From Prorocentrum cordatum (Eukaryota), in the NCBI GenBank assembly GCA_963575745.1, contig CAUYUJ010000257.1, forward strand, positions 62,001-116,232: DNA of 54,232 nucleotides, read 5' to 3'. This document shows, in pieces, positions 5,814 to 11,800 of this stretch. A model generated the notes under the pieces. It was not told the DNA's origin. It was given only the letters and a program-made list of their open reading frames with translations, and did not search any database. The translations under genes and the position numbers were made by a program. Positions within the stretch are counted from its first letter, which is position 1. Every line of letters starts with the position of its first letter.

Positions 5814-8800
5814 GAGTTGGGCACCCGAATTATCCAGGATAGGTAGACCTGGTCTGGGCAGGGCCCTGCGTGGTGTCCCCAAATCTGATCCGGGAAATCC
5901 CTGAAATCGCTTGCTCCAGAATGTGTTCTGTTTTGGGAGTGGTGGACCGTATCTATATGGGGCAGAATGTGATTCAGGACAACTCGAGTTGAGCGCAATC
6001 GGGCCTGGGGCAACTCCGTCGCGAAGAGGGAGGCCGGAATCGAGAGGTACCCTTGACCACCTCCTGCCCTGATAACTCGTGTCTGAAGGAGCGCGAGGAG
6101 GCGGTGACCGGCATCAAGCCCGACGAGGGCGGGGACTCTCCGGCGGCGCACCAGGACAGCACAACCCATCCCCACCCCCAGCCAGGACCCCCACTCCCGA
6201 CCTGGTGATCCAGGAGGTGCTGGCTGGGGGTGGGGATGGATTGGGGGCCAACAAACCACCCTCATCCCCAGCCAGGACCTTCTGGATCGCCAGCTCGGGA
6301 GTGGGGAGTGGGGGTGGGTGGGTGAGTTATGCTGCCCTCAAGGAGCGGACGCTCGTAGACCGGCTGTTCGCCAGCATCGAGTCCGCTTTCGTCCAAGAGG
6401 GGTTCCAGAGGATCCTGAGGAAGGGGAAGTCTCGGCAGAAGGGCCTCCATGGGCAGCCGCGTCGCAGGCGCGAGCTCCCTCCGCAAGGCCCGCGCCTGCC
6501 GGTGCACGAAGACGCCGACTACCCCGTCCGAGACGAGTCTGCGCAGAGTCTGGGCGGGGTGGTCGTCGAGGACCGGCGATATGCGTAAAGAGGAGGCGGA
6601 GGAGGAGGAGGAAGAGGAGGAGGAGGAGGAGGAGGAGGAGGAGGGGGGGGAGGAGGAGGAGGAGGAGGAGTGGTCCCTCGCCAGAGTGACTTCCGGTGCG
6701 GACGGGCTGGGGTCCCCTGATCGCCGCGTGCGGTGGAGCAGCAGCGGCCTGCGCTCGTGGGTCTGGCCCGTGTCTGCAACCTCACCCCTGCCTCGGGTCA
6801 CCTTTCGGCAACGCCGAAAGGAGCTGCTGGGCATGTCGCACTCTGGAGAAGCCTGGGCCGTGTTCAACACGCAGGCGGATAGGGACGAGGCCGTGGAAGC
6901 GGTCGCGAGCGCTCGCGGCATCGAGTTCGAGGGCAGCGTGATCACTCTTGAGAAAGCGGCGCTGGATCCCGATTCGATCCTCTGGGAAAACAGTGGTTTC
7001 CTGAACTCCACGAGCGATCTCGTCATGAAACTGGCCGTGGGCGGTGGCGTCGTGATGCTATCGTTGGCGGTATGGGTAGTGGCGTTCTTCGGGCCGTACG
7101 CTTACTTCGTGACCAACGCAACGTACACGTACGGGCAGGAGCTTTCTTCTCTTCACCTTCTTCGAGGATCGAGGATCTAGGTGTTTGGACGTTTCTATCA
7201 TCTTGTTCTACCTCCATGGGGCCTCTGAAGGCTACCAGGGACCTCTGGATGCCTCCCTCCTCATCCTCCCCGCCCGCCCCCTTCGCCTCGCCACTGGGCA
7301 GGAGCCCAGCAACACGGAGGTGTTTGTGTTCTCAGGGGTCGTCATTGCGGGCAACGCCCTCATGTGCTTGGTATGCAGCGAGGTATCTGACTGGGTCGGG
7401 TTCCACACGACGGACGCCCGCGAGGTCTGCAACATGCTGCTCTATCCACGTGCCTGAGGAAACCCCCGCCAGCGTGCCAGCTCAGGGGAGGCCGAGAGAG
7501 GGTTTCAGCATGGCTTCGACGCCTTCTGTGGCTGGAGCTGTGTCCCCCGCTACGCCACCGTAGGGGTACGTCGCCCTGGGGGGCCGTGGAGCCCTCCCAT
7601 TCAGCGCGAGTCGATCTCGAGCTTTTCCGAGGCGAGAGCTGGAACGTCTGAAAGCACACCGCCGAGATGTCATGAAGTTGTTTCAATGTATTTGGTTTCT
7701 TCGGGTCTCGCTGGAGGCCTCTTTGGGCCCAACTTGGGGACTTGTGAGGCCTTCTCGAGGCCTTTGGTGGACACGAGCCTTTGGGGGTCGGTTGGCCGTC
7801 GTTTGGCCGATCACTGGGCATCTGTCAGCTGTCTTGAGCCGATATTTGGCCAACTTGGTTTCGCCTTACGGCCGACACCCGCGCCGGGAAGCAACACCGG
7901 GGGCGGGCTTGATGTGTTCAGTCTGCGCATCAAACCAGAAGCCGGCCTGTCGGCTGGTGGTGCTCCACAGCCACCTGTTGCTCCCCGATCTTGCCCCACA
8001 GAGGAGAGTCCTGGGCCGCCCTGGGATGCGAGCGACGGAAGAAAGCGGGGTCGACTGTACCGGCATTCGCGCGTAAGCTTCCCGCGTAAGGTCGCGCGGA
8101 AGCGCCCTCGTCGTGCAGCGCTTCGGCGGCGGGCCCAGGGGGGACATGAGAAGGAGCAGGCCTTCTCAGAAGGCCGCGGGACTTCTCAGAAGTCCGGGGG
8201 ACTTCTGAGAGGTCTCCTTAGCCTATTTCGAATACAGACTGAACTTCTCAGAAGCCCTCTCAGAAGTTCGGAAACTTCTCAGAAGCCTCGGAAGTCCCGC
8301 CCCTTCTCATTTCCCCCCCGCGCCCGCCGCCGAGCGCTGGCGGTGGAGGGTGAGCCGCGGAGTAAGGTCGCTATCTCATCTCGCAGAAGACCCCTTTCTT
8401 TCCTCGGCGGCGAAATTCGAACTCCACCTTCGCCGATCAGCGATTCAGGCAGCTCGATGGGCGGCGGGGATGGGGTTCGGAGTTCGTCGAACACGTGGCG
8501 AAATGCGAGCCCTACCCCCGCCCCCCACCGATTCAGAAGACTCGATGGTTGGGGGTAGGGTTCGGATGCCGCCACCTGTTTTCGTCGCCCACGTGCCCTC
8601 GCCGCTTCCTTACAGCAGGACCTCTCGACGCACCACCTGCCGCGCGTGTGCGCACTTCGTCGGGGAGGGGGCCGCCTCTCTGCAGGATGCGTCGCTCGAG
8701 ATTGTCCTGACCGAAACTGCAGCCATCATTGAGACGAGGGCACGATTTCTGCATGACCTGTGAGGAAGTCTCGGACGAAGCGGCTGCTTGCACCAGGGCT

Positions 8801-11800
8801 CCCCGTCCTCCTTGTGGGACTCTTCTGTGGCCCTTCCCAAACGCTACTAGAACCCTCTTAGCGAAACGCAGCTAGGGAAAACCAGGCGCTCTGACACCCC
8901 GCTGCTGTGCAGGCGCGGTGGCGGACAACTTAGCGTGCGTTGTCCAGGTGGTCCTCGACCTCGCCATCACCTACAGCATCTCGTACCTACGGCTTGTGGG
9001 AAGGGAGATCCGGACCTACGACGGGACGCCCCTTTCGGAGCTCCCCACGTTCGTGGAGAGGATCGAGGCCTACCCGATGCAGCAGGAGCTCGGAAGAGAG
9101 GTCTGCACGCTCGCGTGGCTCCTCCTCCACCTTCTCCCTCCTCCTCCCTCCTCCTCCTCCTCCTCCTCCTCCTCCTCCTCCTCCTCCTCCTCCTCCTCCT
9201 CCTCCTCCTCCTCCTCCTCCTCCTCCCGCCTCTGCCGCCGCGGCGGCAGGCAGACTTCCCGCCCATGACTCATTCCCATTCCCCTCCTCCTCCTCCTCCT
9301 CCCCCCTCCTCCCTTCTGCTTCCTCCTCTACCTCTCCCTTCCGCTCCCCCCGTGCGAGGTCTACATGTTTGCGTGGCCGGCCACCTTCCTCCTGCCCTTC
9401 CTGATCGAGCCCCTGATCACCGTCTACGTGCCCTTCAAGCTGATGGAGTACATTGTACGGAGCCACAGGGAGATCACTTACACCACCGCAGAGGCATACG
9501 CACCTGCGTCCCAGAGTCACCCCACTCTGGCGGCCCCAATGAAAAGGAGGAGGAGGAGGAGGAGGAGGAGGAGGAGGAGGAGCAGAAGGACAATGAAAGA
9601 GGACGAACACAAACATCAAAGCACAGAGGCCTTCCTCTCTGCCGTCCCGTTTGACCTGTCGCGGTACGCCGACATAAACCTCAACATTATGCTTGCGGTT
9701 CTGATATCCAGCTGCCTACGGCAGACCCCACCACCGTGGCAGCGCAGCAGCGCAGCAGGGAAGAGAGGGAGGAGAGAGAGGGGAGGAGGGGGAGGAGCAG
9801 GAGCAGGAGCAGGAGCAGGAGGAGGAGGAGGAGGAGGAGGAGGAGGAGGAGGAGGAGAAGAGTTCAAGACCCGCTCCAATTCGTTCGGTGCCCTGTCTGA
9901 ACTGGCGCGGGTCCTGAATAAGTCGTCATTGTCCTCAGCTTCGTTTTCCTCCTCCCCCCTCCCTCCTTGTTCTTTTCCTGGCCATCCCTCCTCCCTCTTC
10001 ATCTTGAAGGCGTCTGGTCACTCCTGCAGGCTTAGTGATTCTCTTGTTTTCTTTTCAGGGCCCTCTCGAGTGCCTATTCGGGGCTCGTTGTGGCCCCTTT
10101 GGGTCCGTGGGGCTGTCTTGGGCTCGATGGTTCAGCCGAGCTCTCCCGAAGAGGCTCGGTTGAGCCATCTTGGGGATGCCTGGGCGGGAGTTGGGGCAGT
10201 CTGTTAGCCCTCTCGTGCGATCTTTGGCCGTCTCGGGGGTTTGCGGGCAGTCTTTGGGCTGACGGAGGGCCTTTCTGGGGCCATCTTGGGCCGTCTCAGG
10301 AGCTCATAAGGGGCTCCCTGAAGCTTTCGCGAGGCGTTCAGCAGCCGAAAAGCATCGGAAGCAACTCAACTTCAGATCAACTTGTGATTGTTTGCGTTTG
10401 CCTCCCAGGGCCTCGCTGGAGGCCGCGCTGGGTGTCTCTTCGGGGCCTCCTGGTGCCTCTTGGGGACATCTTGGAGCCTTTGGGGGCTGCTGGGCTGTCA
10501 TTCGGTCATTCTGCAGCGGCCCTCGGGGGGTCTTCGTCCGTCTCGGAGCCGCCCAGGGGACAAGCAACGATGTGCCGCGAAGCAGAGGGGGATCATCTTG
10601 GGAGGGTGGTTGCGATAAGGCAGAGCAGGACCAGGTACGGATACCGCTACCCTTCCCTCGTTTTCGCATTTTTTCGGGGCCTCCTGGGAGGCCCTCGTCG
10701 CCTCCGCTGGATGCACCTCGAAATTCTGGTCAGAACGCTCCTGGGGAGAGGTTCGGGGAGTAGCGGTATCGGTACCTTTTGGTTTCCCCAGAAGGGGGGA
10801 GGGCGGCCCTGGAAATTGGCAGAATCCCTACAGGACAACCAAAGGGCTTGTCGATCCGCCCCAGCGCGCCGAAGGCAAGGTGGCGGGTTCTTTTTTCCCG
10901 GTGGCTACACCCTCCCTTTGTTTTTGGGGCTGGTGGGCAGTCACATGTTCATTTATTGTTACGACCACTGGCGCATCCTCAGGTCGTCGCCGAGTTGTTA
11001 CTTCTCCACGATGCAGGTGGCTCCTGACAAATTCAATACGTAAATAGCAGCGCACGCTCAGCAACACCAACTCGACTTTCTCAAACTAGAGGCCTTGCCT
11101 CGCTTTCCAGGGTTCAGGGGATTTCCATTTCTCCGTCGGCGGAAGCTGGCGGAGGGCTCGCGGACTCCAGCGGAAGCAATGCGTTGATGGCTTCGTCAGT
11201 TTCGATGGCGGATTTTTGTTCGGAAGCAGGCGGAAATAGACGTCACCGCCCCAAGAGAAGGCTGAAGGCTCAACGCCAGCGTACCCAGAATTTCTGGGAC
11301 CGGCCGGATGTCGGCTAGTCGTAAGACTGACCTCCCGCTGGAGTGACCTTTTTGGTGCATGCCCACAGGGGTCACCCCTCCAGCACTGGCTTGCTTGCAC
11401 GCTCGCCTTTGCCCCCCCCACCACTCCTCCCTTCTAGGTCTTCGATCATGGACCCCTTGGTGAATGCAACCGTCAAGCTTTCGCGCCGAAGATCGCCGAG
11501 ACCACCGAAGGCCGTCAGAAGACCGCCAAAGACCGCCGAAGACCGCCAGAAGCGCGCCGAAGACCACCCAGGACCGCTTGGTGACAGGGGTTCCATGGTC
11601 GAGTGCGCAGTCTTTCGCCCAGGGCCACCCTTGTGTGGAGCCGACAGGTGAGCGACGCTAAACAAACGGGGTCGTCTGCGCCGACACTGCCGCGCAAGCT
11701 GCTCGCGTAAGGTCGCGCGCAAGCGTCCTCGCTTCCAGCGCAGCGTACTGCGCGCCAGCGGCCCGCGCAAGCCTGCGGCGCAAGGTCCCTGTGCTGTCCC

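Follow-up and report, generated by a model that had tools for sequence, protein, structure and literature searches.

Introns with hairpin ends and non-canonical borders are so far on record from euglenids and from two strains of Amoebophrya, a parasitic dinoflagellate. The non-canonical introns of Amoebophrya A25 and A120 are described as carrying inverted repeats of 8–20 nt between their ends, with a hairpin that joins the exon borders (Farhat et al., 2021; PMC7789003), and the account of the nonconventional introns of euglenids in review PMC11282704 (on Milanowski et al., 2014, 2016; Guminska et al., 2018, 2021) includes pairing of positions +4 to +6 (CAG) with −8 to −6 (CTG), circular products, and late removal. 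For core dinoflagellates, the reviews and primary papers searched (including the preprint 10.1101/2020.10.14.339549) use the term "non-canonical" for GC and GA donors only, and the literature searched, with subscription papers and the supplements of Farhat et al. (2021) and Dougan et al. (2023) outside its scope, contains no report of introns in this group that depart from G[TCA]-AG and have ends such as those described below. Here we analyze a stretch of 54,232 nt of DNA from Prorocentrum cordatum (contig CAUYUJ010000257.1, hereafter the window; 60–65% GC), and in particular intron 5 (i5, 7444–8924, + strand) of a single multi-exon gene that runs on the + strand from approximately 3560 to 32660, as located by tblastn of the proteins P0001 to P0003. 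This 1481-nt intron has the ends AT..GG, and the joint left by its removal is present in the transcripts of four of four public runs. What is new is an example that is backed by RNA, has defined terminal motifs, and comes from a core dinoflagellate that is free-living, can be grown in culture, and blooms as a red-tide alga.

The region 6671–9118 was compared with four runs from four studies (X1, X5, X15, and X18) in the form of assembled contigs; X5 is recorded as polyA RNA-seq, and X1, X15, and X18 are of unrecorded kind, contain only about the exonic share of the words, and were guessed to be RNA. In each of these runs one contig passes directly from 7443 to 8925, with 1481 nt left out and an ambiguity of 1 nt, and the slide gives an equally possible frame for i5 of 7445–8925 with the ends TC..GA. 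The contigs (1102, 2894, 3871, and 3802 nt in length) each cover 6819–7132, 7296–7443, and 8925 onward, and they also carry the neighboring joint from 7132 to 7296. The shorter side of the 7443/8925 joint is the 148-nt piece 7296–7443, which shows 0 differing letters in three of the four runs, and the exons taken together show 0 differing letters from the transcripts in 462 nt in 3/4 runs; the 4 differing letters in the last contig piece are explained by the contig continuing into the next exon. No contig in any of the four runs crosses an exon-intron boundary, and the only cover of i5 consists of short records (31–51 nt) of its internal repeat. A preliminary description of this DNA, made from the letters alone, had proposed that a non-canonical junction is used at this site and had offered a read probe with C or T at one variable letter. 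The transcripts bear this out: the junction seen carries C (not T) at that letter in all four runs, and the canonical junction, which was expected to be the only one observed if the proposal was wrong, is seen in none of them.

Protein homology places the junction at the same point. In the mapping against the transcript-derived proteins P0003 and P0002 (introns 3 and 4 of the gene are RNA-supported as well), residues 838 and 839 of P0003 map to 7443–7445 and 8927–8929. The joint 7443/8925 is the only indel-free solution against P0003, with no G[TCA]..AG pair yielding an indel-free product, and the site is collinear, having neither gap nor insert, in all 31 homologues that cover it. The upstream exon spans 7302–7443 on the + strand (its last base may be 7444), follows the GA-AG intron 4 (7139–7301), and is placed by the RNA contigs and by tblastn of P0003. 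The downstream exon spans 8925–9100 on the same strand, is placed by contig pieces that start from 8925 in all four runs and by the junction scan, and is followed by the GT-AG intron 6 (9101–9358). The sequence of i5 is removed from mature transcripts at ends that are not G[TCA]-AG, and two nearby canonical pairs are unused in the assembled transcripts. It seems probable that i5 is a real intron, removed from RNA at ends that lie outside both the GT-AG rule and the G[T/C/A]..AG rule of dinoflagellates.

It is also important to consider i5 among the other introns of the same gene. We mapped 15 of these, comprising 11 with G[T/C/A]..AG borders, 3 that are non-canonical (i5, i7, and i10), and 1 (intron 2, about 6150–6340) for which homology gives no resolved junctions. 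The donors of the canonical set are GC (i0, i13, and probably i6b), GA (i1, i3, i4, i9, i11, and i12), and GT (i6 and i8), and most other introns of the gene are ordinary dinoflagellate GA/GT/GC-AG introns. The junction scan found no canonical indel-free solution for i5, i7, or i10, and for i7 no G[TCA]..AG solution lies within 25 score units. Homology alone places i7 at 9707–10887 (+, TC..GG, or 9706–10886 with AT..GG), with 30 collinear homologues at the site, and i10 at 15770–22801 (+, AT..GG, or a 1–2 nt slide), with 28.

These three introns were chosen solely for want of a canonical solution, yet their ends are alike. The ends are ATCCACGTGC...GGTGGCGG in i5, ATCCAGCTGC...GGTGGCGG in i7, and ATTCAGTTGC...GGCAGCGG in i10. 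The 5' terminal motif of i5 (7444–7453, +) has its counterparts at 9706–9715 and 15770–15779 and gives the class consensus ATYCAsnTGC, with 7 of 10 bases invariant, and the 3' terminal octamer of i5 (8917–8924, +) gives the consensus GGyrGCGG, with 6 of 8 bases invariant. Between i5 and i7, an ungapped comparison gives 32 identities in the first 45 nt and 20 in the last 30, a level that random intronic pairs reach in 0.08% (5') and 0.14% (3') of 20000 trials, figures that are inflated by microsatellites. The interiors of the three introns are unrelated, the lengths range from 1.2 to 7 kb, and all three lie in sense orientation. The cuts can be framed as ↓AT...GG↓ in all three (with the codon ATG at i7), or as A↓TY...GCGGR↓, which keeps a conserved isoleucine at i7 (arrows mark the cuts).

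The boundaries of these introns also set them apart from their neighbors. The direct repeat across the boundary is 1 nt in i5 (A), 1 nt in i7, and 2 nt in i10, while 8 of 9 canonical introns of the gene have boundary direct repeats of 4–10 nt, the chance of at least 4 nt being about 2%. Exact flanking repeats of 7–10 nt are seen at intron 4 (GGGCAGGAGC, 7133–7142 and 7296–7305) and at other canonical introns (GAGGTCT at 9098/9356, CAGGTGG at 11014/14696, and CTTCCAGGAC at 23077/30760), and they look like target-site duplications of introner-type insertions. We incline to the view that i5, i7, and i10 belong to a small sequence-defined class, which has at least three members in this gene, starts A↓T-Y-C-A-(G/C), ends G-G-y-r-G-C-G-G(R), and has no boundary direct repeat.

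Across the window the 10-mer 5' motif has 6 occurrences against 1.2 expected, although 3 of the 6 are those that defined it, and the 3' motif has 17 against 9.8 expected. An exact copy of ATCCACGTGC lies on the minus strand at 40643–40652 with no gene evidence around it and may be due to chance, and a possible fourth 5' end at 1080 was rejected for want of coding support.

The preliminary description had further proposed a terminal stem in which 7446–7456 (+) pairs with 8910–8921, leaving CGG over at the 3' end. This proximal stem does exist as a possible pairing of 11 base pairs (10 Watson-Crick and 1 G-U) with G8918 bulged, a duplex ΔG of −18.7 kcal/mol, and AT unpaired on the 5' side and CGG on the 3' side. 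The energy is reached by 10.5% of 3000 random intronic 25-mer pairs, by 51% of 500 shuffles of the same ends, and, when the helix is required to start within 4/5 nt of the ends, by 2.6% of 5000 random pairs. In full-length partition-function folds the probability of its pairs is about 0, and its 5' arm is missing from i10, where the MAFFT alignment has a 14-nt gap. The stem taken alone is not beyond chance in GC-rich DNA.

A second helix, formed by a box that lies farther from the 5' end, behaves differently. In the minimum-energy fold of excised i5, the distal 5' arm or box (7466–7484, +) pairs with the 3' arm (8906–8924, +), which ends in GGTGGCGG, as a helix of approximately 16 bp with three mismatches that continues to the last base of the intron; the CGG that had been taken as left over is paired here. 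When the first 60 nt of each intron were tested for duplex formation with its last 20 nt, the pairing of 7465–7486 with 8905–8924 in i5 had a ΔG of −33.2, reached by 0.2% of 3000 controls, and the corresponding helix of i10 (+9 to +38 with −20 to −1) had a ΔG of −31.3, reached by 0.3%. The value for i7 was −22.0 (7.5% of controls), and for 9 canonical introns 13–92% of the controls reach their duplex energy. The register of the box is kept in i7 and i10, with 11 of 12 positions of the common register paired in i5, 9 of 12 in i7, and 10 of 11 in i10. Two positions show double changes, from C-G to T-A and from A-T to G-C, and another appears as T.G, T-A, and C-G; this covariation among three sequences is suggestive of a conserved helix and falls short of proof. 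Both i5 and i7 are able to form the proximal and the box helix.

With this in mind, we propose that the box, 10–22 nt inside the 5' end, would pair with the last bases of the intron and thereby bring the 3' cut beside the 5' cut, as described for the nonconventional introns of euglenids and the non-canonical introns of Amoebophrya. Recognition would then fall to a permissive spliceosome or to a separate activity, which might read the 3' octamer together with the conserved 5' leader, left single-stranded. The canonical GT and AG that fall inside the paired ends, or next to them, go unused. In its wider form, which we put forward tentatively, the proposal is that the nuclear genes of core dinoflagellates contain introns of a second, sequence-defined kind (a 5' A↓TYCA(G/C) leader, an internal box, and a 3' GGyrGCGG paired to the box), removed without G[TCA]-AG recognition as a counterpart of the euglenid nonconventional introns, spread through the P. 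cordatum genome, and invisible since annotation pipelines forbid such junctions.

Several observations weigh against this proposal. The class has three members, all in one gene, and the 54-kb window holds no further copies of the terminal module, only short matches at chance level. The placement of i7 and i10 rests on homology with proteins 85–90% identical and not on RNA of the same strain. The covariation depends on three sequences and on the placement of MAFFT gaps, the box of i10 being aligned across the 14-nt gap, and the best duplex of i7 is the proximal one and not the box. When 20 nt of exon flank are included, 7448–7456 pairs instead with the exon at 8931–8940 (9 pairs, one bulge), a pairing for which no counterpart was found by eye in i7. 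The RNA evidence consists of assembled contigs and not raw reads, in which minor isoforms, lariats, and circles are invisible, and X5 alone is recorded as RNA, the other three runs being guesses. An intron-less copy of the gene may also exist.

The alternative that survives best keeps the introns and changes the agent, and we regard it as possible if rather unlikely. A permissive U2-type spliceosome would read the terminal motifs, and the inverted repeats would be relics of an intron-creating transposon with no role in splicing. Such a spliceosome has been proposed for Fritillaria and Amoebophrya (as summarized in review PMC11282704), and the similarity of i5 and i7, about 70% identical at their ends over 45 and 30 nt around unrelated interiors, is as in non-autonomous transposon families; the chance-level energy of the proximal stem also fits a repeat that serves no purpose in splicing. 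A transposon relic is harder to reconcile with boundary repeats of 1–2 nt, which amount to no target-site duplication, with the lack of any other copy in 54 kb, and with the absence of a transposase from 74 open reading frames (ORFs) of the introns. Selection on pairing is suggested by the two compensatory changes that the box helix shows, and perfectly good AG↓GT...CAG↓G pairs 19 and 23 nt away are ignored.

Far less probable is that the 1481 bp are a DNA insertion in the assembled copy or haplotype, with the transcripts coming from an uninterrupted allele or paralogue. Contigs cannot tell which copy was transcribed, the genome is described as having many duplicated genes and transposons (Dougan et al., 2023; PMC10666404), and the element does have inverted ends. 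The same explanation would, however, need three independent insertions with like ends, of 1.2–7 kb and all in sense orientation, in one gene, whose exons otherwise keep an open frame and agree with the transcripts at every position (0 differing letters in 462 nt in 3/4 runs). Neither a target-site duplication nor, in any run, a contig across the exon-intron boundary accompanies i5.

Hardly credible, finally, is the reading in which a canonical product predominates and the observed joint is an artefact of assembly or mapping. Two GT..AG pairs are available, both with good dinoflagellate-type context and AG↓G acceptors. The first, 7425–8947 (+), had been correctly pointed out in the preliminary description as a phase-0 pair that would delete 14 codons (GT at 7425–7426, AG at 8946–8947); the second, 7450–8912 (+, GT at 7450–7451, AG at 8911–8912, phase 1, adding 6 codons), lies inside the proximal stem and had been missed, and it is the one used by the NCBI gene model P0001. 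No contig in the four runs carries the junction 7424/8948 or 7449/8913, with the proviso that contigs drop rare variants and minor isoforms could escape, against four of four runs for the non-canonical joint with its 148 nt on the shorter side. All 31 homologues lack both the 14-residue deletion and the six extra residues (PRAVAD) that the second pair produces and that P0001 alone carries.

The public gene model P0001 contains errors at several points. The model (span 3559–11040) is truncated after about 9506, just downstream and before the next odd intron, i7, and takes a false C-terminus from 10987–11040, and about 80 residues upstream of 4989 have no match in any homologue. In the P. cordatum genome paper the mappers and predictors are described as modified for GC and GA donors only, with "introner elements" counted on those models (Dougan et al., 2023; PMC10666404). 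A pipeline restricted to G[TCA]-AG is blind to an intron class of this kind and therefore mis-models the gene, and many of the 85,849 gene models reported there may suffer from the same annotation error.

Other known mechanisms of intron removal were considered and rejected. U12-type introns begin /ATATCC or /GTATCC and end AC or AG, whereas i5 begins /ATCCAC and ends GG. The minor spliceosome has in addition been reported absent from alveolates (PMC7789003). The ordinary dinoflagellate U2-type (G[T/C/A]..AG) does not apply to an intron that starts AT (7444) or TC (7445), ends GG (8924) or GA (8925), and has a boundary repeat of 1 nt, nor does an introner whose target-site duplication supplies a canonical site, as i5 shows no duplication and uses no canonical site. 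A tRNA-type bulge-helix-bulge was set aside on reading the sequence, the first bases of the intron not being complementary to the first bases of the next exon. Group I introns were dismissed for lack of a core and because the exon before i10 does not end in U; a search of the whole window on both strands gave 0 Rfam matches at gathering score and no group I or group II core. Nested or recursive canonical splicing would leave both final cuts non-canonical in any order, and A-to-I editing that made a GU donor would not create an acceptor.

The gene itself encodes a member of a large dinoflagellate family (P0002–P0033) of membrane proteins without a Pfam assignment and with a Cys-rich N-terminal part. 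Its largest exon (4989–5816) is 100% identical to P0001 and has 32 further relatives, many of them transcriptome-derived. Pfam gave 0 families in 5 single-exon pieces and 0 above the cut-off in 3 full-length homologues, and a profile of 26 homologues against Protein Data Bank sequences gave a weak match to the CSC1/OSCA-like channel 8t57 (E 0.021), which may serve as a lead on the gene family and amounts to no assignment. In a scan of metagenomes, the downstream exon matched a single locus (L001, 41% identical), a distant intron-less relative that is collinear at all three non-canonical sites.

Repeats are frequent in and around these introns. Within i5, an internal foldback at 8116–8339 (no strand assigned) is built of 20-nt palindromic units of the CTTCTCAGAAG type in inverted, direct, and tandem arrangement, and matches itself in reverse. 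Records of 31–51 nt from this foldback, within 8146–8192, reach depths of 9 to 234 in three of the four runs, and from the depth of these short records the repeat is abundant in transcripts elsewhere. The foldback is a nested repeat and not part of the terminal signals. Dispersed repeats are common to different introns and the upstream region (4641–4780 with 10641–10782, 83% over 142 nt; 8030–8121 with 11650–11741, 78% over 93 nt), and a tandem array inside intron 8 (13251–13711, 460 nt) has 42 copies of the 11-nt unit AGCTTTAGCTT. On the minus strand, a run of long open frames at 47–3716 (375, 273, 316, 180, and 370 aa) falls in an AT-skewed stretch and has no Pfam match; a mobile element of unclassified type, inserted in an upstream intron, may account for it. 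In Pfam searches, neither the 119 ORFs outside the gene nor the 74 in its introns matched a transposase, a reverse transcriptase, or any further domain above the cut-off.

The locus offers a compact and testable system: its helix is conserved and covaries, the gene's ordinary introns serve as an internal control, and canonical sites a few bases away are ignored. Should core dinoflagellates indeed possess a second kind of intron, many "odd" or truncated dinoflagellate gene models would be artefacts of this class, which bears on the origins of introns as well as on dinoflagellate annotation.

The comparison with known systems begins within the same genome and the same gene, where dinoflagellate introns and introners have GT/GC/GA-AG borders and AGG-type boundary repeats (Roy et al., preprint 10.1101/2020.10.14.339549; Dougan et al., 2023, PMC10666404). 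In the sources compared, introners are defined on G[TCA]-AG models, and the canonical introns of this gene agree with them in their 4–10 nt boundary repeats (8 of 9); i5 has neither feature. The transposon-like introns of Fritillaria borealis (Henriet et al., 2019, via PMC11282704) resemble i5 in having non-canonical ends and being efficiently removed by the host. Fritillaria is, however, an animal, removal there is attributed to an evolved U2 spliceosome, and the description compared (PMC11282704) gives no conserved end helix.

Euglenids provide a closer likeness, for as described in the same review their introns have non-canonical borders and stand beside conventional introns in the same genes, with short terminal complementarity joining the ends, no pyrimidine tract, and very variable length, as here. 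In the AT..GG frame, CCAC at +3 to +6 of i5 pairs with GTGG at −7 to −4, which is near the euglenid register given there but off by one, with a CAC/GTG motif that is unpaired in i10. Euglenids belong to an unrelated supergroup, and the conserved helix of the present introns is formed instead between the box, which lies 10–22 nt in from the 5' end, and the final bases of the intron.

Amoebophrya, as described by Farhat et al. (2021), belongs to the same phylum and has RNA-supported introns that are not GT-AG, with inverted repeats at their ends, which derailed standard gene prediction as happened here. An inverted repeat of 8–20 nt is present in i5, both as the 11-bp proximal stem and as the box helix of approximately 16 bp, while the 3–5 nt direct repeats across the borders of the Amoebophrya elements are replaced by 1–2 nt. 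The account compared gives no consensus terminal dinucleotide and cuts that vary relative to the hairpin (the supplementary figures may show end motifs), and the three introns here have defined termini. Such introns make up more than 60% of the total in Amoebophrya, a parasitic, early-branching lineage lacking U1, and 3 of 14 resolved introns in this gene of a free-living core dinoflagellate. The Amoebophrya elements are repeated, with many copies in families; the present introns share ends of approximately 45 and 30 nt around unrelated interiors, and no other copy was found in the 54 kb searched. In its manner of working i5 would resemble the introns of Amoebophrya and of euglenids, but it lacks the direct repeats of the former and is off register with respect to the latter.

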